A DNA stretch of 64,000 nucleotides from a bacterium (GCA_030648255.1 JAUSHZ010000007.1:24404-88403); one strand, 5' to 3'; shown: positions 2,527 to 35,141, numbered from the stretch's first letter. The notes: generated by a model not told the origin, from the letters alone. Made by a program: numbers and translations.

Positions 2527-2751
2527 GTTAGAAGCTGTGTGAATTTTCAAATTTAATGATTTGAAAATTCATTACAGATTCTTACACCCCGTTAAGTGCG
2601 AGCGATTAGCAAGCTACTTAACTGGGGTTTGTTTATATTTCTATCCACACCCCAGTGAAGTAGAATTTAATTTCATTAAATTCACTTCACGGGGTAAATT
2701 CCGCCAACCGCTCAAACTTCGGCTCATCGCCTCGTTTTCGCGGGGCGTCAT
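2527..2751 (-). repeat. Intergenic modular repeat copy 3 (head A, middle I variant, tail 3)
   Basis: Lies between the rpsM ATG and the rpmJ stop. The tail is ...ctcaaacttcggctcatcgcctcgttttcgcggggcgtcattta. Confidence 0.9.
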
Positions 2752-2868
2752 TTATGCGCCTTGGCGCTGTTTGTGTTTTGGAGTTTTGCAAATAACATAA
2801 ACCCTCCCCTTTCTTCTGGCGATTTTACAATCCTTACATAATTTTTTTACTGATGGTTTAACCTTCAT
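2752..2868 (-). CDS. rpmJ: 50S ribosomal protein L36 (missed by the 60-aa ORF cutoff)
   Basis: Reverse complement reads ATG AAG GTT AAA CCA TCA... and translates [38 protein letters not shown]. This is a classic L36 with C-x2-C...C-x4-H, 38 aa, in the expected infA-rpmJ-rpsM position. Confidence 0.9.
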
Positions 2869-3085
2869 GTTAGAAGCTGTGTGAATTTTTAAATTTAATG
2901 ATTTGAAAATTCATTACAGATTCTTACACCCCGTTAAGTGCGAGCGATTAGCAAGCTACTTAACTGGGGTTTGTTTGTATTTCTATCCACACCCCAGTGA
3001 AGTAGAATTTGAGTACAAATTCACTTCACGGGGTAAATTCCGCTTGCCAATCGCGCTTCGCCTGCTGGCTCGCACTCTTGGAGCG
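2869..3085 (-). repeat. Intergenic modular repeat copy 4 (head A, middle I, tail 4)
   Basis: Near-identical to copy 3 across the head and middle. The tail ...gcttcgcctgctggctcgcactcttggagcgTCAttta uses tca as the TGA stop of infA. Confidence 0.9.
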
Positions 3086-3304
3086 TCATTTAAGTCTATA
3101 AACTATTCTGCCTCTTTTATCATCAATAGAGGCCATTTCAACCAACACCTTATCGCCCAACAAAATTTTTATGCGATTAATTCTAAGCTTCCCGGCCAAA
3201 TGCGCCAAAACCTCGTTTCCATTTTCCAATTGAATTTTAAATAAAAGACTAGGCAAAGCCTCTACAACTTGGCCTCTTTCTCTTATTGTATTAATTTGTT
3301 TCAT
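3086..3304 (-). CDS. infA: Translation initiation factor IF-1
   Basis: 72 aa with S1-like IF-1 sequence (LENGNEVLAHLAGKLR...GDKVLVE...RGRIVYRLK). Confidence 0.9.
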   Translation of the reverse strand: MKQINTIRERGQVVEALPSLLFKIQLENGNEVLAHLAGKLRINRIKILLGDKVLVEMASIDDKRGRIVYRLK

Positions 3305-3358
3305 CTCGTTACGATTGTCTAAAATAGCAAATTATTCAAAAAAGGTCAACCCCTTTGG

Positions 3359-4738
3359 CTAGAAAACCATTTCTATCTTTATCTTATCTAGGCTTTTTGG
3401 CGCTCTTTTTATCCAAAAAGGCCAAAATTGCGTGTCCAGTCGTTCAATTTGGGGGTAGCTATTATTCAATAAAATCTCCATATCTTCTTTAGATTTTCCA
3501 GCTAAATCCGCAATTAAGGCTGTTTGGTCAATATCATTATAAAGCTTGGCATCTGTTTTTAAATTAAAAATCAAACTCCCTTTTTCCGTAATGCTGCCTT
3601 TTGGAACTACGCTTGTCGCTAAGCTTTGTTCGTATAATTTCTTTGAAGAAGATAGTTTTGTATCAATAAAGCTTTTGGCCATATCCTGCAAATCTGATCC
3701 CTTAAAAACAATTGTCTTAGCTTTTATTTTTGCATAACAATTAAATTCAGCGAGGTTGGCGCCAACAGCTTGAGAACAAGAGAACTCGGGCTCGCCATAG
3801 TCAACTGATTCTTGGTTAAAAGAAAATCCAGCGGTTGTTTGCTCCTTCAAGCCCGAAACAGCCATTTTTTTTAACTCCCTAATCAAGCTTTCTTGAGCAT
3901 TATCCATATCTCCTTGAGTTACTTGATCAACTTCTTTCTGACCCCCGCCGTCAATTTTTTCTCTTGATTCACCCCAAACATTATAGTATAAAGCTGTTCC
4001 TGTTAATCCTGGAATAGAAAACTTAGCAGGGGCTATATTATATTCCTCTCCCTCCTGATCAGCGACAACCTGAACCTCTGTAATGCTTGGGGTTAATTTT
4101 CCATTAAACAATGTGGCTTGGGGCAAAGAAATCTTATTTTTTGCCCGATAAACCTTTCCATCTTTTGATGATATAAATCTTGTTCCTGCTTTTAAGTTTA
4201 AGGGCATTGGGGGATTAATATTATTGTAAACAAATATAGCGCCCGTTGCCCCAGATTGTTCTGTTTCTTTTCCAGTTGACTTAAATGTTTCCCATTTCTC
4301 TACTTCTTTTTCAATTACATTTCCGGGAATAATCTTTTTTTCAAAATCGATTTGCGCTTGAGAAAAAGAAACTTGAATCTCGTCTTTAATTGTAATTGGC
4401 TCTAATAGCGGTTTCACGCTTATTTCTGCTTTTGCCTGCATCGTTAAATATAAAAAGGCTCCCCCTAAAAGCAAAATGGCTACACCAATAACTATGGGAA
4501 TTTTTAGAGCAAGTCTTGGTAAAGTAAAAGAAACTCGAATTTCTTTTTTTCCCTTGCCACGTCGGAGTTCCGCAGGAACGGAGGCGGGTCTTTCTTTTTT
4601 CACCTCCCCCTTCTTCATCCCCTTTCTTGTAGGTGATTTTTTTTGAGGCTTAGTTGAAGCTAAAACAATTGGAAATTGTTCCTCTGTTTCTTCTGCTTCT
4701 TCCTCATCTGGATTTGTTATATCAATAATTTGCTTCAT
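3359..4738 (-). CDS. Hypothetical membrane-anchored protein: acidic then basic N-terminus, one TM helix, ~380-aa extracytoplasmic domain
   Basis: 459-aa ORF. The TM segment is IPIVIGVAILLLGGAFLYL. No recognisable family. It sits inside the r-protein operon. Confidence 0.5.
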   Translation of the reverse strand: MKQIIDITNPDEEEAEETEEQFPIVLASTKPQKKSPTRKGMKKGEVKKERPASVPAELRRGKGKKEIRVSFTLPRLALKIPIVIGVAILLLGGAFLYLTMQAKAEISVKPLLEPITIKDEIQVSFSQAQIDFEKKIIPGNVIEKEVEKWETFKSTGKETEQSGATGAIFVYNNINPPMPLNLKAGTRFISSKDGKVYRAKNKISLPQATLFNGKLTPSITEVQVVADQEGEEYNIAPAKFSIPGLTGTALYYNVWGESREKIDGGGQKEVDQVTQGDMDNAQESLIRELKKMAVSGLKEQTTAGFSFNQESVDYGEPEFSCSQAVGANLAEFNCYAKIKAKTIVFKGSDLQDMAKSFIDTKLSSSKKLYEQSLATSVVPKGSITEKGSLIFNLKTDAKLYNDIDQTALIADLAGKSKEDMEILLNNSYPQIERLDTQFWPFWIKRAPKSLDKIKIEMVF

Positions 4739-4866
4739 GTTAGAAATTCTTAATTGAGTGGCGAATTTATGAGCCGTGAAATTTAGAAGTTTTTAGTCCT
4801 CCGTAAATTCAAACTTCGCCTACTGACTCGTTTTCATTAACGGATTACTTATTCTACCACAAAAAT
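4739..4866 (-). repeat. Intergenic modular repeat copy 5 (short: head B + tail only)
   Basis: Sequence catgttagaaattcttaattgagtggcgaatttatgagccgtgaaatttagaag...cgttttcattaacggattacttatt. It lacks the middle module and sits between alaS and the membrane-protein gene. Confidence 0.8.
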
Positions 4867-6615
4867 TTACTGCTGCAAAATCGCTTTAATTCGCCGAACG
4901 CCAGCTGAACTGGCTTCTTCTTTAATAATTTTAAATACGCCCAAAGTTTTGGTATTTTCAACATGAGGACCAGCGCAAATTTCTTTAGAGAACTCTCCTG
5001 CGGAATAAACTTTCACTTTTTCTGGATACTTGTGGCCAAAAACTCCTGTGGCCCCTTCATCAAATGCTTTTTGAGTTTCCATTTCACGGCAAACAACAGG
5101 CAACTCCTTTTTTATTTGCTCGTTAACTAAGTCCTCCACTTTTTTTATTTCTTCTGGGGTTAATTTTCTTTCAAAAGAAAAATCAAACCTTATTCTTTCA
5201 GAAGTAATATTGCTACCTTTTTGCTGAACATCCCCTCCCAAAACTTGCCTTAAAGCAGCCAGCATTAAATGAGTGGCTGTGTGGTATTTTGTGGTTTGTT
5301 CAGAATCATCAGCTAAGCCGGATTTAAACTGCCCAGCACTGGCTGTTCTAGACAACTCTTGATGCTTTTTTAATTCCTCTTGAAAACCTTTTTCGTCAAT
5401 TTCCTTGTCTTTCTCCTTGGCAATCTCTCTTGTTATTTCTAAAGGAAATCCGTAAGTTTGATAAAGATTAAAAACCTCTTCCCCAGAAATAATTGGCATA
5501 TTTATTTTTTCAAATTCTTTTAATCCCCTGTCTAAACAAGTTAAAAATCTTTCTTCTTCTTTTTGTAGTTCATTTAAAATAAACTCCTGATTTTCTTTCA
5601 GTTCTGGGTAAACATTTTCATACATAGCAATAATAACTTTAGCAATCTCGCCCGTAAAAGCGCTCTCAATACCCAACAGCTTGCCGTATCTTATTGCCCG
5701 CCTTATTAATCTCCGCAACACATATCCTCTTTCTGTGTTTGACGGAACAAGCCCATCGGCTAATATAAAAACGCTGGCTTTTATATGGTCTGCAATAATG
5801 CGAAAAGATTTTGTATTTTCCTCATATTGCTTTCCCGAAATTTCTGAAATTCTATTTATTATCGGAGTAAACAGCTCTGTTTCATAAACATTACTTTTTC
5901 CTTGCAAAACCATTGTAGTTCTCTCCAGGCCCATGCCAGTGTCCACATTTTTCTGCGATAATTCTTCAAACTTTCCGTCTGCAGTTTTGTTATACTGCAT
6001 AAAAACATTGTTCCAAATCTCCACCCATTTTTTATCGCTTGGGTCAAATTTTTCAGGAACTTCCCCCTCTCCAACCCAATAAAACATTTCTGTGTCTGGG
6101 CCGCAGGGCCCTGTACTTCCTGCTGGGCCCCACCAATTATCCTCACGGCCCAAATAAGCAATCCGCTCTGGCTTAACCCCCAAACCTTGCCAAAGATTAA
6201 AGGCCCCCTCGTCTTTTGGTATATTATTTTCTGTTTCACCTTCAAAAACCGTAAAAGCTAACTTTTCCAAAGGAATATTTAATTCTTTAGTTAAAAATTC
6301 AAAGCTCCATTCAATGGCCTCTTTTTTAAAATAATCCCCCAAACTCCAATTACCAAGCATTTCAAAAAATGTTCCATGGGTGTTGTCCCCCACATCATCA
6401 ATATCACCCGTTCTAATACATTTTTGGCTATTGCAAAGCCGTTTACCTAGGGGATGGTTTTCCCCAAGCAAATAAGGCACCAATGGGTGCATACCTGCTG
6501 TGGTAAATAAAACTGTTGGGTCGTTTTCTGGAATTAAAGGGGCAGATGGTATTCTTTTGTGTCCCTTGTTCTCAAAAAACTTTAAATATTTTTCTCGTAT
6601 TTCTTTAGCTGTCAT
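4867..6615 (-). CDS. alaS: Alanine--tRNA ligase, aminoacylation + editing domains, lacking C-Ala domain
   Basis: Starts MTAKEIREKYLKFFENKGHKRIPSAPLIP with class-II AlaRS motifs. The C-terminus carries the editing-domain zinc motif HTATHLM...CAGPHVENT...GVRRIKAI. Length is 582 aa versus about 870 for full-length AlaRS. Confidence 0.85.
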   Translation of the reverse strand: MTAKEIREKYLKFFENKGHKRIPSAPLIPENDPTVLFTTAGMHPLVPYLLGENHPLGKRLCNSQKCIRTGDIDDVGDNTHGTFFEMLGNWSLGDYFKKEAIEWSFEFLTKELNIPLEKLAFTVFEGETENNIPKDEGAFNLWQGLGVKPERIAYLGREDNWWGPAGSTGPCGPDTEMFYWVGEGEVPEKFDPSDKKWVEIWNNVFMQYNKTADGKFEELSQKNVDTGMGLERTTMVLQGKSNVYETELFTPIINRISEISGKQYEENTKSFRIIADHIKASVFILADGLVPSNTERGYVLRRLIRRAIRYGKLLGIESAFTGEIAKVIIAMYENVYPELKENQEFILNELQKEEERFLTCLDRGLKEFEKINMPIISGEEVFNLYQTYGFPLEITREIAKEKDKEIDEKGFQEELKKHQELSRTASAGQFKSGLADDSEQTTKYHTATHLMLAALRQVLGGDVQQKGSNITSERIRFDFSFERKLTPEEIKKVEDLVNEQIKKELPVVCREMETQKAFDEGATGVFGHKYPEKVKVYSAGEFSKEICAGPHVENTKTLGVFKIIKEEASSAGVRRIKAILQQ

Positions 6616-6621
6616 ATATTT

Positions 6622-7377
6622 CTAAATATTTTTTACCATAGCAGTAAATTCTTTTATATTCAATGAAGCGCCACCAACTAAGAGGCCATCAATTGCTTCA
6701 TTTTCTAAATATTTATTTGCGTTGTCTGACCCAACGCTTCCACCGTATAAAACTCTTACTTTCTCTTTGGCTTTTCTGCCGTAAATTTCAGCTATTAATT
6801 TTTTTATATATAAAGCCATTGTTAAGGCGTCGTCGGGAGCACAGGTTAATCCTTGGTTTGTGCTAATTGCCCACAAGGGCTCATAGGCTATAACAAGCTC
6901 TCCTACTTGTTGTTTTTTAATAGCTTTTAAGCTTTCCCTTAGCTTTTTCTCAACAATTTGAAATGTTTTGCTTTGGTTTCTTTCTTCTAATGTCTCGCCA
7001 ATGCAAACAACTGGTGTTAAACCCGTGCTTAACACGGCTTTTACTTTTTTGGCAGTCATCTCATTTGTTTCTCCCATTACCATTACTCTTTCAGAATGAC
7101 CTAAAATAACATACTTAACTCCTAAATTTTTTAGCATTGTTGGCGAAACCTCGCCCGTGAATGCTCCTTGATTTTCCCAAAAACAATCTTGCGATCCAAT
7201 TTTTACTGCCCCAACTCCAAAAACTTTTTTTGCCTCTGCTAAATAAACAAAGGGGGGGCAAACCACAACTTCTATTTTATTGTTTTTTATCCCCGCTCTC
7301 AATCCAACCATCATCTTTTGCGCCTCTTTTAGGGTTGTTGGATTACACTTCCAATTTGCAATAATTAGCTTTTTCAT
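6622..7377 (-). CDS. tpiA: Triosephosphate isomerase
   Basis: 251-aa TIM barrel with conserved ANWKCN, GHSERV and YEPLWAI motifs. Confidence 0.9.
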   Translation of the reverse strand: MKKLIIANWKCNPTTLKEAQKMMVGLRAGIKNNKIEVVVCPPFVYLAEAKKVFGVGAVKIGSQDCFWENQGAFTGEVSPTMLKNLGVKYVILGHSERVMVMGETNEMTAKKVKAVLSTGLTPVVCIGETLEERNQSKTFQIVEKKLRESLKAIKKQQVGELVIAYEPLWAISTNQGLTCAPDDALTMALYIKKLIAEIYGRKAKEKVRVLYGGSVGSDNANKYLENEAIDGLLVGGASLNIKEFTAMVKNI

Positions 7378-31189: not shown

Positions 31190-31401
31190 ATGGTGGGCTA
31201 CCCCAGCTCAAATTTTGCGAAGTAATGCGGGGGCAACCCGCTTCGCCCACCGCCAGCTGGCGGTAAGGGATGGGGCTATTCGCCCCACGCAGGTTGCAAG
31301 ATATTTTTTTAAGTTTAATTAAATTTTATATAAAGTGGTGTTAGCGGAGGCAAAATTTGAGCGGGGTGCTCATTTTGTTAATTCGCTTCGCTCAAAACAA
31401 A
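31190..31401 (+). promoter_or_regulatory. Structured GC-rich leader upstream of rpmB
   Basis: Nested stems ggtgggc...gcccacc, gcgaag...cttcgc, gccagctggc, ggggctattcgcccc and gagcg...cgctc lie immediately 5' of the rpmB ATG. Confidence 0.35.
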
Positions 31402-31686
31402 ATGGCAAAAGTATGTACAATATGTGGCAAGGGCTCATTAATGTTTGGAAAATTAAACAAGTTAAGGGGAAAATATAACCCAGCCCCAAAAGTAAGAAAA
31501 TACCCAAACCTTCAATGGCTAACTGTGCCAAAAGATGTTCGCAATAAAAAATTCACTAAGCTTGCTGGCCAAAGAATCGAGGCCTGTACTAAGTGTATTA
31601 AAACTTTATCTAAGCCCGTGCGACAGAAAAAGCAAAAAGAATCTCCAAAAGAAGAAGTAAAAGAACCCGCAAAAATCGGGGCATAG
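31402..31686 (+). CDS. rpmB: 50S ribosomal protein L28 with K/E-rich C-terminal extension
   Basis: Starts MAKVCTICGKGSLMFGK...NPAPKVRKYPNLQ (L28 signature). The ORF track starts 15 codons early. Confidence 0.8.
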   Translation: MAKVCTICGKGSLMFGKLNKLRGKYNPAPKVRKYPNLQWLTVPKDVRNKKFTKLAGQRIEACTKCIKTLSKPVRQKKQKESPKEEVKEPAKIGA

Positions 31687-31764
31687 TATATCAGTATTAT
31701 GCAGGGCTGGGGGTCCTGTGAGCTGGGTGCGATTCCCAGTGCCCCGACTGTAAAGCCCGCCAAA

Positions 31765-31795
31765 CCAAAAACCGCCGAAAGGCGGTTTTTGGTTA
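31765..31795 (+). terminator. Intrinsic terminator of rpmB
   Basis: aaaaccgccgaaaggcggttttt. Confidence 0.7.
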
Positions 31796-31832
31796 AATTA
31801 TTACACTGGTAAGACCTGTGTAAAACTTTATC

Positions 31833-32060
31833 TTGACAATGGTTATATTTTTTTGCTAATATAACAGTGTGCTTGTGGGGCGTCAGCCCTATTCGGCTAA
31901 TTCCTAAGCTGAAGGCAGGCACATTTACATCTTCTTGCGGGGCTGAAATGCAGAAAATCGGCTCTACTGCGGGGTGCGAGTAGTCCCTTTACGGGGTATC
32001 CAAAGCGCTACGAGGGAGGGTTGCCGTCCTCCCAGCTCCACAAGAGGATGTATTTTTTTA
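31833..32060 (+). ncRNA. Candidate ~190-nt structured sRNA with promoter
   Basis: TTGACA (31833-31838), 18 nt, TAATAT (31857-31862). The 5' cuugugg pairs with the 3' ccacaag (a terminal closing helix) followed by auguauuuuuuu. The ORF called on the opposite strand (31512..31922) overlaps rpmB and is judged spurious. Confidence 0.4.
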
Positions 32061-32247
32061 TATAATCGTTATCTCGCAATCTAAATGCTGTGGCAATTTG
32101 AATTTCTTCTAATTCTATTCCATCGCATAATATTTTTACAGCTTCAATGGAGCATAAATAATCTAAACTTCCAATTCTTTTCACCAAGCAATACCCACCC
32201 CGTTTGCTTGTTTTATTTTGGTAAATTTTATCTGGATACTTAACTAT

Positions 32248-32436
32248 TTATTCCTCAACCTCAACCCCACACTCCCGACAAAAAATCTTAAAATCATTTA
32301 TGTTCTCGGTATGGTCAACCTGAAGCTGGCCATCAGAAAAAGTCAAAATGTCGTATTGATTCGGCTCACTAACAAACTCCCCCGCCCCACACTTCGCACA
32401 ACACCCATCAACTATTTTAAAAAACTTTTTTGACAT
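32248..32436 (-). CDS. Small Zn-ribbon protein (two C-x2-C pairs)
   Basis: 62 aa with CCAKC...CREC. Confidence 0.45.
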   Translation of the reverse strand: MSKKFFKIVDGCCAKCGAGEFVSEPNQYDILTFSDGQLQVDHTENINDFKIFCRECGVEVEE

Positions 32437-32440
32437 GAGT

Positions 32441-32983
32441 TTAAAATATTCTAAAAATAAAAAAATCTTGTGGTAAAAAAGAAACTAGAATAACCGTAGT
32501 GCCAATGACAAATAAAATTAGTAAAACATTTAATGCGGTAGTTCCATAATTTTCCTGTTCTTTTGGTTGCTTCATTGTGTTTGCTAAATTTATCGTTTTT
32601 TCTTTTAATTGTTCCATTCTAATTTCTATCAAATCCTTTGACACTATTTGCATTCTTGCCTCAATGATTTTACCTAATTCCTTAATCCATTTTTTATATT
32701 TTCCAGCTTCATCAATAAAAGTTCTCTTCACCCAAAAAATTGCGTATGCGATAGATAAAAATAATATAAATTGTCCAAGTAGCCATAATTCTAAATGTTT
32801 TGCAAAAGATAATGCTGTAAAGCCAAAACCAGCTATTAAACCAAACACTTGGACTAATTTATATACATAATCAAGTGCCCTTTCCCTCACTTTCTCGTGT
32901 GCTTGCACTATTTCTTCCTGTAATTTTATATCCTCGTGAAGATAATATAAATTATCTTTGAGTAATTGTGTGTATTCTTTCAT
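32441..32983 (-). CDS. Hypothetical membrane protein
   Basis: 180 aa with 3-4 TM helices. Confidence 0.4.
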   Translation of the reverse strand: MKEYTQLLKDNLYYLHEDIKLQEEIVQAHEKVRERALDYVYKLVQVFGLIAGFGFTALSFAKHLELWLLGQFILFLSIAYAIFWVKRTFIDEAGKYKKWIKELGKIIEARMQIVSKDLIEIRMEQLKEKTINLANTMKQPKEQENYGTTALNVLLILFVIGTTVILVSFLPQDFFIFRIF

Positions 32984-33036
32984 ATTTTAAAAACCTTCTT
33001 TGCCATAGATTTAATTAGCTGGAATCTAAAAGAAAT

Positions 33037-33285
33037 TTACCTATATTTTTCTGGCATAAATTTTGCTTCTTCCTGCCAAGTCAAATTAAATACATCTTCG
33101 CCAATTCTATGAAATTCAAATAGACAATCTCCATCTACACATCCATCTTCTTCGTCCCATTCCTCAACACTAACCATATTTTCGTCTTTTAAACAATCAA
33201 CCGTACCTAATCCATTTTTTTCGCAAATGTCTGCTATATCGTCAAAAGAATACTTTTTATCTTTTGTAAAAATTTCCATAATCAT
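33037..33285 (-). CDS. Small acidic Cys-containing hypothetical protein
   Basis: 82-aa ORF. Confidence 0.35.
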   Translation of the reverse strand: MIMEIFTKDKKYSFDDIADICEKNGLGTVDCLKDENMVSVEEWDEEDGCVDGDCLFEFHRIGEDVFNLTWQEEAKFMPEKYR

Positions 33286-33457
33286 AATTAAGAAATATTT
33301 CTTTTACATCTTTTTTTGAGTATCTCTCAATAACAACACTCTTATTCCAAACTTGTAGATCTTTTCCCTCGTACTCCAAATAATCAAACGGCTCAGTAGT
33401 CGTTTTGAAATACGAATAAATTTTATTGTATTGAGATTCTAATTTTTTATAATTCAT
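33257..33457 (-). CDS. Small hypothetical protein
   Basis: 66-aa ORF. Confidence 0.3.
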   Translation of the reverse strand: MNYKKLESQYNKIYSYFKTTTEPFDYLEYEGKDLQVWNKSVVIERYSKKDVKEIFLNYDYGNFYKR

Positions 33458-33462
33458 AATTT

Positions 33463-34305
33463 TTATGAAAAATCTGTTAAAAACTTGATTTGGTTTGCTT
33501 GTTGCACATTAAAGTTTATTTTATTTTTGATAAATTCCAAACGATATTCTGGAGAAATTTCCCCGCCATTTGCCAACCTATCTAAAATCATTTGATAATA
33601 TTTAGGATGTATTTCACAAGAAACAAAATCTCTCTTAAGTTCTTTACATTTTAGTAGCTCTGAACCACTCCCACCAAACAACACAAAAATATTGTCGCCT
33701 TCTTTGGTGCTTGATTTTATCAACATTTCAACTAAGCTCAAAGGTATTTGGCAAGAATGAAAAGTTTTATCTTTAGAAACATTTTTAACTAAATCAAAAT
33801 AAAACCAAGAGTATGGCATCCTTCCAGCACTTCCATTTTTAATTCTTCCCTGTATTCTTTTATCGGTTGGATTTTGATAGGGTAAAGCAACTTGATCTTT
33901 ATAAAAATTATTATTTTTTGTTTTTGTAGCGTGTAAAATAACTCTATGGGCAGTGGTAAATTTTTTATCGCTATGGCCAATATTTGAGTTATAAACCCAA
34001 ACATAGTCATTTACTAAAAAGGCATTGTCGTCTAGAAATTTTACTCTTAAATAGGCATTTTGTTTTGGGTAATTCATCATAAATAAATTCCCTGTCGGTT
34101 TTAAAACCCTCATACATTCTTTCGTAAGCTCAATATACCAATCAATATACTCATTCCATTTAGCGGTAAATTTTTTACCAGCATAATTTATGCCCACATT
34201 ATAATCTGGGTCACCATATACCATATCAACCGAATTATCTGGCATTTTCTTTAGAGTAACTAGAATATCGTCATTAAAAATTTTGTTTATAAAATTTTCT
34301 ATCAT
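33463..34305 (-). CDS. DNA methyltransferase, beta-class N4/N6 (DPPY-like DPDY then FGGSGS)
   Basis: Motif IV-like VYGDPDYNVG lies N-terminal to the AdoMet motif VLFGGSGS. This is the ParB-less PF01555 architecture. Confidence 0.7.
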   Translation of the reverse strand: MIENFINKIFNDDILVTLKKMPDNSVDMVYGDPDYNVGINYAGKKFTAKWNEYIDWYIELTKECMRVLKPTGNLFMMNYPKQNAYLRVKFLDDNAFLVNDYVWVYNSNIGHSDKKFTTAHRVILHATKTKNNNFYKDQVALPYQNPTDKRIQGRIKNGSAGRMPYSWFYFDLVKNVSKDKTFHSCQIPLSLVEMLIKSSTKEGDNIFVLFGGSGSELLKCKELKRDFVSCEIHPKYYQMILDRLANGGEISPEYRLEFIKNKINFNVQQANQIKFLTDFS

Positions 34306-35141
34306 TTTTTGTTTTGATTTATTAAGTTATACCTAACTGACTTTAAAAATTTAATTGAAGTTATGTCTTGGGGATTAGTAAAAGTATAAGCATACAAATT
34401 AAGTGCATCAAACCCCTTTTGCCTTTCCCTGACCACATAGATACAAACAATTTCTTTTATTTTTGTTTTTAATTCTGGTTTTTGTTTTGCCTGCCAATAA
34501 TAAAGAAAGGGGTGGTAAATTTGGTATATCGAAAAATTCGTTGGCTTACCATTTTTTGCTTCAAAAATCCCTATTTTGCCCATAAATTCAATCGTTAAAT
34601 CAATCTCAATCTGAACTTTATTTAGTTTTATCCCTACATTTTTACCAAAACCATACCCTAAATTAGCTTTTGTTCTATGGGGAAAATATGTTTTTGGTCT
34701 ACTGGCAATGTCCGAATTATCAAACTCTTTGTCTTGACCAAATAAAAAGTGATGCAAAATTCGCTGATTGTTTGCAACCGACAAAATATTCGATTCGCTG
34801 GTGTTGTATTGGTTTAAAATTGATTTTTTATATTGCCAATCAATTATCTTTTGTATTGGCTCAAAATTATGATAAATTTTTTCTATATCTTTAATAAACT
34901 GGTGCTTTCCACTTCCTAAATGAATAAGAGCAAAATCTTCTTTTTGCAAAGCAACAGGCAGTCTTTCTTTGGTATCTAGTTTTGTAGCGTCGAAATGATT
35001 TTGAAATCCTACTTTTTTAGAAACCGCTTTAACTAAGTCATTGTCAAAAACAAAATCGTTTTTATCTTTACAAATTTTAAAAATCATCGACAAAACCTTT
35101 TTCTTTTTATTTTCTTTTTGTGAAGCTTTTTTGGTACTCAT
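34302..35141 (-). CDS. Putative type II restriction endonuclease (partner of adjacent MTase)
   Basis: Overlaps the MTase gene by 4 bp. Has a PD-(D/E)xK-like ...IEID...FEAK. No other homology is recognisable. Confidence 0.45.
   Translation of the reverse strand: MSTKKASQKENKKKKVLSMIFKICKDKNDFVFDNDLVKAVSKKVGFQNHFDATKLDTKERLPVALQKEDFALIHLGSGKHQFIKDIEKIYHNFEPIQKIIDWQYKKSILNQYNTSESNILSVANNQRILHHFLFGQDKEFDNSDIASRPKTYFPHRTKANLGYGFGKNVGIKLNKVQIEIDLTIEFMGKIGIFEAKNGKPTNFSIYQIYHPFLYYWQAKQKPELKTKIKEIVCIYVVRERQKGFDALNLYAYTFTNPQDITSIKFLKSVRYNLINQNKK

Follow-up and report, generated by a model that had tools for sequence, protein, structure and literature searches.

What kind of gene occupies the space downstream of rpmB is the question raised by this locus, which lies in a stretch of bacterial DNA of 64,000 nt (hereafter referred to as the window). 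The window is AT-rich (about 30% GC), and homologues of its ribosomal protein L28, the product of rpmB (31402-31686, plus strand), place it in the Patescibacteria/Parcubacteria, ultra-small bacteria of the CPR; a protein identical to the L28 of the window was not found among recorded sequences. An earlier note had proposed a promoter-bounded RNA gene at this site, with the promoter directly following the rpmB terminator, and had considered a 6S-like or other housekeeping RNA. The terminator hairpin was confirmed at approximately 31768-31795, 5′ of the candidate, but a gene for tRNA-Pro(GGG) (31677-31748, plus strand), detected by both Rfam and ARAGORN, sits between rpmB and this hairpin. The terminator therefore serves rpmB-tRNAPro. 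The last 10 nt of rpmB are overlapped by the tRNA gene, an arrangement that is the same in all L28 loci examined (L001, L009, L011, L012). On the other side of rpmB, towards a Peptidase_M50 gene, the window contains another GC-rich element (31200-31320, plus strand; about 120 nt), which is predicted to form a long hairpin (-48.7 kcal/mol) and ends in a T7 run. It has no Rfam match and is absent in the closest relatives, where the gap between the M50 gene and rpmB is only 73 bp, as well as among the approximately 100 loci compared.

The promoter read in the note is present and reaches a score of 10/12, with an upstream TG (Table 1). With 10 promoter-like matches where 5.9 are expected, a single match is not significant. 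What makes the promoter credible is the recurrence of such sites (at least 10/12) in about half of the distinct homologous loci, where they are found 34-41 nt upstream of the motif GCAG, just 5′ of the closing helix P1. Judged from its position, transcription would start at about 31868-31870, resulting in a predicted transcript of about 190 nt with a lineage-specific 5′ extension. The element is a GC island (GC approximately 0.49 compared to a background of approximately 0.30), and its fold (MFE -83 kcal/mol, z = -4.2) was better than those of all 200 shuffles. The internal hairpin GGGAGG...CCTCCC of the note was found at 32014-32033. The U tract also exists, but comprises seven and not eight residues. 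With regard to the closing helix of the note, the repeat finder revealed the inverted repeat CTTGTGGGGC (31872-31881)/GCTCCACAAG (32035-32044) with 90% complementarity; the helix common to the family, however, uses the proximal 5′ strand (P1 5′ strand, Table 1) and not the distal one. The distal strand is a second copy of the P1 5′ strand carried by the 5′ extension, which the window has in common with only one other locus (L082) showing the same promoter and a few pair-preserving changes. In all other homologues P1 directly follows the promoter, and the extension lies outside the family covariance model. Its own promoter, the long closing helix and the U-tract terminator support a stand-alone structured RNA gene on the plus strand, in line with the note.

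A search for known families did not account for the element. Rfam 15 yielded no match on it, neither with the window at the gathering score nor with the section 31650-32250 at E ≤ 10; the model check envisaged in the note (6S, SRP, RNase P, tmRNA, extended to all other families) was thus empty even at the permissive threshold. RF00013 (6S) and related models, applied at the gathering score and at E ≤ 10, left 31868-32058 without a match, and no match to the element was obtained with SRP RNA, RNase P RNA and tmRNA models (Rfam, ARAGORN) or with the Rfam models DUF3800-I to DUF3800-XI, drum, skipping-rope and FuFi-1. Nine homologous loci compared to Rfam at the gathering score did not reveal any family on the element either. 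In the window, ARAGORN called only two tRNAs and no tmRNA; neither this program nor RF00005 identified the element as a tRNA. Two apparent resemblances were rejected. The likeness of GCAGAAAAUCGGCUC to the CR-V/P4 region of RNase P RNA is not sustained by the order of the elements, the CR-I partner is lacking and the distribution is patchy. For a likeness to SRP domain IV, a GNRA hairpin and an Rfam match are missing.

By pattern scans, about 50 homologous loci were recovered. A 17-mer from the centre of the RNA matched one phage contig (L014), whose alignment with the window revealed an identical 27-nt core and a conserved 3′ motif, while the arms were completely different. When species-representative genomes were scanned with a degenerate pattern, seven of the 11 matches were due to chance and four were true homologues, which belong to three MAGs of Patescibacteria and one MAG labelled Woesearchaeota. 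A 20-mer applied to metagenomes detected 46 loci, all of them (46/46) true homologues. Scans of viral sequences gave no match with GGGGTATCCAAAGCGCTAC, L014 and two chance matches with AAAATCGGCTCTACTGC, and 17 loci with the P4 pattern, 16 of which were chance matches in GC-rich coding DNA. The homologue from the MAG with the archaeal label (L037/L071) is preceded by a promoter of bacterial type (TTGACA-19-TATTAT), yet the label is archaeal; mis-binning or horizontal transfer are possible explanations. In the closest relatives of the window (10 contigs, L28 86% identical, same Peptidase_M50-rpmB-tRNAPro synteny) the RNA was absent at the syntenic site throughout. L001-L012 do not possess it downstream of rpmB-tRNAPro, and more distant L28 loci were also devoid of it. 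At the corresponding site of L001 (2900-3040) and of L002-L010, a TTGACA-17-TATATT promoter is followed by an unrelated hairpin of about 75 nt and a terminator.

That the homologues represent a genuine conserved structured RNA can be regarded as almost certain. When 31 distinct sequences of the long form were aligned by MAFFT (alignment A1), the result supported a four-way junction composed of the helices P1 to P4, and identical helices were independently obtained by RNAalifold. In A1, 95.3% of the cells at paired positions were able to pair, compared to 82.5% in shuffles and 41-50% with slid partners. The covariation, proposed in the note as a check, proved to be strong: 29 of the 45 pairs changed on both sides, and the covariation score was 0.454 against 0.22 in shuffles, with 0 of 500 shuffles attaining any of the measures. 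The folded strand is the plus strand, since G-U cells prevail over A-C cells (148 vs 25), the model scores the sense strand much higher (for L071, 145 bits compared to 34 bits for the antisense strand) and promoters recur upstream. Within the 64-kb window, the covariance model R1 matched only at this site, in full length with P1-P4 and the core AAAUGCAGAAAAUCGGCUCUACUGCGG. Every helix of the window RNA is intact and its promoter is kept.

Table 1. Coordinates of the RNA gene, its structural parts and the adjoining gene remnant in the window
Feature	Position	Strand	Description
Sigma-70-type promoter	31833-31862	+	TTGACA 31833-31838, 18-nt spacer, TAATAT 31857-31862; TG upstream of -10
Lineage-specific 5′ extension	31868-31923	+	Predicted Y-shaped three-way junction (MFE fold)
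Family member (covariance model R1)	31924-32054	+	135.1 bits, E = 3.4e-34, model positions 1-131 of 131; although part of the R1 seed, the window sequence scores like the non-seed loci L093-L099 (123-135 bits)
P1 5′ strand	31926-31945	+	Pairs with 32033-32052; 18/23 P1 pairs changed on both sides
Near-invariant core	31946-31972	+	AAAU-GCAG-AAAAUCGGCUCUA-CUGC-GG; J1/2, P2, 13-nt loop, J2/3; 27 nt
P2	31950-31953 with 31967-31970	+	4 bp GCAG/CUGC, 13-nt loop AAAAUCGGCUCUA
Candidate pseudoknot	31959-31962 with 32023-32026	+	CGGC (P2 loop) with GCCG (P4 loop); family form CGGC with GYCG
P3 arm	31973-32009	+	5-bp stem 31973-31977 with 32005-32009; 4/5 pairs changed on both sides
P3 internal loop	31979-31983	+	Conserved AGUAG (alignment A1)
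P3a inner hairpin	31985-31988 with 31993-31996	+	Variable; 4/4 pairs changed on both sides
J3/4	32010-32014	+	ACGAG here, ACGAU in most homologues; nearly invariant
P4 hairpin	32015-32019 with 32028-32032	+	8-nt loop; 3/5 pairs changed on both sides
P1 3′ strand and U7 tract	32033-32052 and 32053-32059	+	Intrinsic-terminator-like 3′ end
PBECR3 remnant, 5′-truncated	32008-32247	-	tblastn 32247-31984, E = 4.9e-32, residues ~76-177 of the full-length homologue

Across the family, P1 comprises up to 23 bp and is followed by the U tract. P4 consists of 5 bp with a loop containing GYCGU and is directly joined to the P1 3′ strand, while the P3 arm is shrunk to a plain hairpin in short forms. The core is nearly invariant: it is identical in all homologues found by patterns and shows only single-base variants in loci found through the protein. 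Being invariant, P2 and the pseudoknot are without covariation support, and the search patterns imposed part of their invariance. The pseudoknot between the loops of P2 and P4, which we infer from their complementarity, can pair in 100% of the 31 sequences (G-C, or G-U at one position) and shows no two-sided covariation. An alternative helix between AGUAG and CUACU was discarded as it clashes with P2 and is missing in the short forms, and as mutations of AGUAG are not accompanied by changes that restore it.

The RNA has a companion on the opposite strand. Full-length products of the convergent neighbour gene comprise 145-185 aa and match the Pfam family PBECR3 (PF18812). The protein of L038 scored 37.4 (cut-off 30), that of L045 scored 26.8 and thus remained below the cut-off; most database homologues of the neighbour protein carry PF18812. 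PBECR3 is predicted to adopt a BECR fold like the RNases RelE, colicin D and CdiA-CT, and its fold matches are toxins and tRNase-like proteins. The conserved residues, among them K56-H57, T126 and R129, agree with the published description of PBECR domains, which have a His and Thr-Ser signature (PMC5512222). The PADLOC library yielded nothing for the protein, and a search of PHROGs gave only matches to families of unknown function. In the literature searched (PBECR, BECR proteins with RNA antitoxins, RNA motifs of the CPR), no connection between PBECR and an RNA was described. As far as Rfam 15 and this literature go, the RNA family appears to be undescribed.

The two genes overlap at their 3′ ends. 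The last approximately 16 codons of PBECR3 (..Y.LLWSW(E/R)D..PSS*) are antisense to P3-3′, J3/4, P4 and P1-3′, i.e. to the 3′ third of the RNA, with perfect complementarity over at least 47 nt. The PBECR3 stop codon is located inside the RNA gene, usually as CUA/UUA just before CGAUG. As the overlapping nucleotides are kept where the reading frame differs (L045 type) and even where there is no ORF at all (phage L014), constraint at the RNA level dominates. In the window, only a 5′-truncated remnant of the gene is left; it does not give a Pfam match, but can be aligned with full-length homologues (E = 5e-32). It ends with a stop codon at 32008-32010, and over approximately its final 17 codons it runs antisense to P3-3′, J3/4, P4, P1-3′ and the U tract. 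An unrelated 62-aa zinc-ribbon gene in the same frame stops immediately before the remnant, which is deprived of the N-terminal part bearing the LKH(I/L)YD motif (K-H). A second PBECR3 gene was not found within the 64-kb window.

The association was studied from both sides. Starting with the protein, all six PBECR3 homologues (6/6; seven loci, L093-L099), which belong to a single PBECR3 clade, carry the RNA on the opposite strand over the 3′ end of the gene. Starting with the RNA, an intact PBECR3 gene was present in 20 of the 32 distinct loci with enough flanking sequence, a remnant in six and none in the other six. Degraded toxin genes lie beside the RNA not only in the window but also in L055, L066, L078 and L084. 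Gene tables and ORFs did not reveal any conserved protein partner next to PBECR3, the RNA being the sole conserved neighbour. In the loci examined, the PBECR3 gene was never seen without the RNA, while the RNA was seen without intact PBECR3. A protein that seems to rely on the RNA, having a protein partner in none of the loci and never being seen without the RNA, and an RNA that does not rely on the protein, occurring as an orphan and in a phage, form the pattern to be expected for a toxin and its antitoxin. A functional partnership of the RNA and PBECR3 is very probable.

The genomic contexts of the module are diverse. In L045 it is found within a type I RM operon, where the RNA/PBECR3 module and a 160-aa ORF are inserted between hsdM and hsdS (2577-7000). 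The Escherichia coli anticodon nuclease PrrC sits at this kind of site in a type I RM operon. L093 has a TrbL/PIN neighbourhood, and other PBECR3 loci lie beside mreCD-PBP2. Two contexts are devoid of the toxin gene. Phage contig L014 and near-identical relatives from metagenomes contain a short form of the RNA upstream of the terminase and portal genes; no PBECR domain was detected by Pfam in nine of the larger ORFs of L014 (the split terminase and small ORFs excepted), and no PBECR3 relatives were confirmed in viral contigs. The gene similar to the terminase large subunit of this contig (10855-12283, minus strand) seems to be split into overlapping ORFs of 143 and 347 aa, which could be due to a frameshift, an intron or an assembly error. 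In L091 (1-1383, minus strand), the RNA lies within nine co-oriented tRNA genes (1.4 kb), only 1-3 nt apart from tRNA-Ile(UAU) and tRNA-Lys(UUU), and its P1 is cut to 5 bp. The tRNA array looks phage-like, the contig being too short to tell. The window itself harbours a variable island downstream of tRNA-Pro (32248-35141, minus strand) that contains the 62-aa zinc-ribbon protein, a 180-aa protein with hydrophobic stretches but without a Pfam match, two small ORFs, an N6/N4 DNA methylase and a DUF6996/DUF6997 protein, which likely acts as a restriction partner. Relatives possess NYN, RE_AlwI/HNH or pEK499_p136 genes at the site of the island. A prophage downstream of the RNA was also considered and dismissed, the genes there being chromosomal or of RM type.

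As judged from sequence comparison, the RNA would be the RNA antitoxin of the BECR RNase PBECR3, in a module of the toxin-antitoxin or abortive-infection type; we assign this reading a probability of roughly 0.55. For the window, it is most likely that the RNA is an orphan antitoxin beside a dead toxin gene, located in a variable island after tRNA-Pro, because the N-terminal half of the toxin, with the K-H motif, is no longer encoded. Neutralisation of the RNase by the RNA would most likely proceed in a type III-like manner in which the folded conserved core binds the PBECR3 protein, and the core may possibly play the role of a tRNA-shaped pseudo-substrate. The obligatory antisense overlap at the 3′ end would add a type I-like layer and keep both genes inseparable and co-inherited. 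Direct recognition of the folded RNA is favoured because the invariant core lies outside the overlap and is retained in the toxin-less phage copies, and because no conserved complementarity in trans was found between the non-overlapping part of the RNA and the toxin mRNA. The core is far more conserved than the PBECR3 protein (27-60% identity), which is unusual for an antitoxin. Such conservation may indicate a universal contact partner of the RNA in place of the toxin.

The pair combines features of several known systems. Like type III toxin-antitoxin modules (ToxIN, CptIN, TenpIN), it has a structured RNA as the sole partner of an endoribonuclease toxin and no protein antitoxin. Phage PhiTE is said to escape such a module by means of a pseudo-ToxI, and a toxin-less RNA copy borne by a phage would parallel this strategy. 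On the other hand, ToxI is made up of tandem repeats, which TRF and the repeat finder did not detect in the RNA described here. The type III RNA gene lies upstream of the toxin gene in the same direction, whereas here it is convergent and overlaps the toxin 3′ end in all pairs. Moreover, the ToxN/AbiQ fold of the toxin contrasts with the BECR fold, and a processed RNA unit of 34-36 nt with a four-way junction of about 130 nt. Convergent genes, transcripts overlapping at their 3′ ends and an antitoxin RNA with its own promoter and terminator are shared with the Bacillus subtilis type I systems txpA/RatA and bsrG/SR4. The antitoxin RNAs of these systems measure 130-220 nt, a size that the RNA described here shares, and their toxins are small hydrophobic peptides. 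By contrast, the protein found here is an alpha/beta RNase-fold protein of 145-185 aa, and the RNA has a near-invariant core outside the overlap and occurs without the cognate gene in a phage. A third group of similar layout are the orphan RNAs reported in 2017 (DUF3800 and others), which possess a complex conserved core, a 3′ intrinsic terminator and one protein family nearby, often on the other strand, and to which no function was assigned (PMC5737381). The traits of core, terminator and linkage are shared, but there is no match in sequence or structure to any of their Rfam models and the partner is PBECR3 and not DUF3800. One DUF3800-V RNA (RF02964, 41.9 bits) is present in the window at 48983-49080 (plus strand), tail-to-tail with a DUF3800 gene (49116-49784, minus strand) at a distance of 35 nt; this layout is the same as that of the RNA/PBECR3 pair.

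The RNA also resembles a tRNA, as its cloverleaf follows the order stem, 4 nt, 4 bp, 2 nt, 5 bp, 5-6 nt, 5 bp, 0 nt, stem, and the loops of arms 1 and 3 are complementary, similar to the D-loop/T-loop elbow. What separates it from tRNA is the lack of a T-loop/D-loop consensus, of a 7-nt anticodon loop and of a CCA or discriminator end, and a P1 of usually about 20 bp. This junction geometry, together with the copy in the tRNA array and the tRNase-like fold matches, suggests a more specific, still tentative version of the mechanism. It is conceivable that the RNA is a tRNA-shaped decoy that keeps a BECR tRNase toxin silent by filling its substrate site. Phages might then have captured the minimal core as an anti-defence RNA disarming the host toxin, including the copy in the tRNA array, which would be released by RNase P/Z. 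We put this forward with reserve, since tRNA detectors do not recognise the RNA.

Other explanations have to be weighed against the antitoxin reading. That there is no RNA gene at all, the conservation being caused by the minus-strand PBECR3 coding sequence in combination with a bidirectional terminator, might be assumed from the 3′ third, which is antisense to conserved codons (..LLWSW(E/R)D..). This has virtually no probability given that the ORF includes neither the core nor the P1 5′ strand, yet the latter covaries with the 3′ strand, that G-U cells are far more frequent than A-C cells and that homologues without any ORF keep the element. An equally extreme outsider is the housekeeping RNA of the earlier note (6S-like or a variant of SRP RNA, RNase P RNA or tmRNA). 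Its size of about 190 nt, the closing helix, the GC-rich composition and the position next to rpmB and tRNA-Pro were in its favour, and 6S RNA is indeed similar in size and likewise has its 5′ end paired with its 3′ end. However, 6S RNA is a long irregular hairpin with a large central bubble, which the four-way junction does not have, and neither Rfam nor ARAGORN recognised the element. The closest relatives do without the RNA at the syntenic site, so that it is not a housekeeping RNA; its occurrence is patchy, tied to mobile or defence contexts, and it travels with a toxin-like RNase gene. A self-cleaving ribozyme or a ligand-sensing, riboswitch-like element, as might be suspected because the multi-helix junction is compact, contains invariant unpaired nucleotides and may form a pseudoknot, is very unlikely, too. 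The RNA has its own promoter and terminator and no sense gene downstream, the linked gene lying on the opposite strand, and no ribozyme or riboswitch family of Rfam was matched.

Two further explanations accept the link to PBECR3 and differ in what it means. The RNA could be a pure cis-antisense regulator of type I-like character that acts solely because it is perfectly complementary, over at least 47 nt, to the 3′ end of the coding sequence in the PBECR3 mRNA; the duplex would trigger decay or the convergent transcription would interfere, and the core would be needed for stability or termination only. Every intact pair shows the convergent 3′ overlap, a layout like that of the type I systems txpA/RatA and bsrG/SR4. 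This explanation is nevertheless unlikely, as an antisense RNA would need far less conservation in the 27-nt core and in the motifs of J3/4 and P4, and as the copies in the phage and the tRNA array keep the core without a toxin gene, their P1 3′ strand being shortened and partly diverged. Furthermore, the overlapping strand is locked in a 20-bp helix, and the protein is a soluble RNase of 150-180 aa and not a small membrane peptide. It is similarly doubtful that the RNA belongs to a PBECR3 ribonucleoprotein, as its component, substrate or cofactor, with a task other than that of a toxin-antitoxin module. Such a role would be in line with the extreme conservation of the RNA, which suggests a demanding biochemical function, with the DUF3800-V RNA convergent with a DUF3800 gene in the window and with the traits shared with the DUF3800-type RNAs (PMC5737381), namely a terminator at the 3′ end, a strongly conserved core and a close link to a single protein domain encoded on the opposite strand. 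Against it stand the fold of the protein, which matches toxins, the asymmetry of an RNA occurring without the protein while the protein was never seen without the RNA, and the frequent degradation of toxin genes beside intact RNAs.

Returning to the reading of the RNA as an antitoxin of PBECR3, its implications extend beyond this locus. To our knowledge, the BECR fold (RelE/colicin D/CdiA-CT) has so far been known only together with protein antitoxins or immunity proteins. With about 50 loci, a near-invariant core of 27 nt, clear covariation and a tRNA-like cloverleaf, the RNA is an informative subject, and a cheap test is possible by co-expression of a 150-aa protein and a 130-nt RNA. The pair also provides a testable hypothesis for the orphan RNAs of 2017 that are tied to one protein family. 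If the RNA is truly a decoy, it would represent a new class of RNA antitoxins characterized by a BECR toxin, a substrate-mimicking RNA and a compulsory 3′ overlap of the genes, and might possibly account for the protein-linked terminator RNAs such as those of the skipping-rope, drum and DUF3800 motifs. RNA-based counter-defence is hinted at by the copies that occur without a toxin gene in a phage contig and within a tRNA array. For annotation, the locus is a warning not to take every GC-rich RNA that reaches from promoter to terminator for a housekeeping RNA when it adjoins ribosomal genes of an AT-rich CPR genome. Should the inference hold, the module would be an undescribed RNA-antitoxin system with a BECR toxin in the CPR/Patescibacteria, whose defence biology is poorly known.
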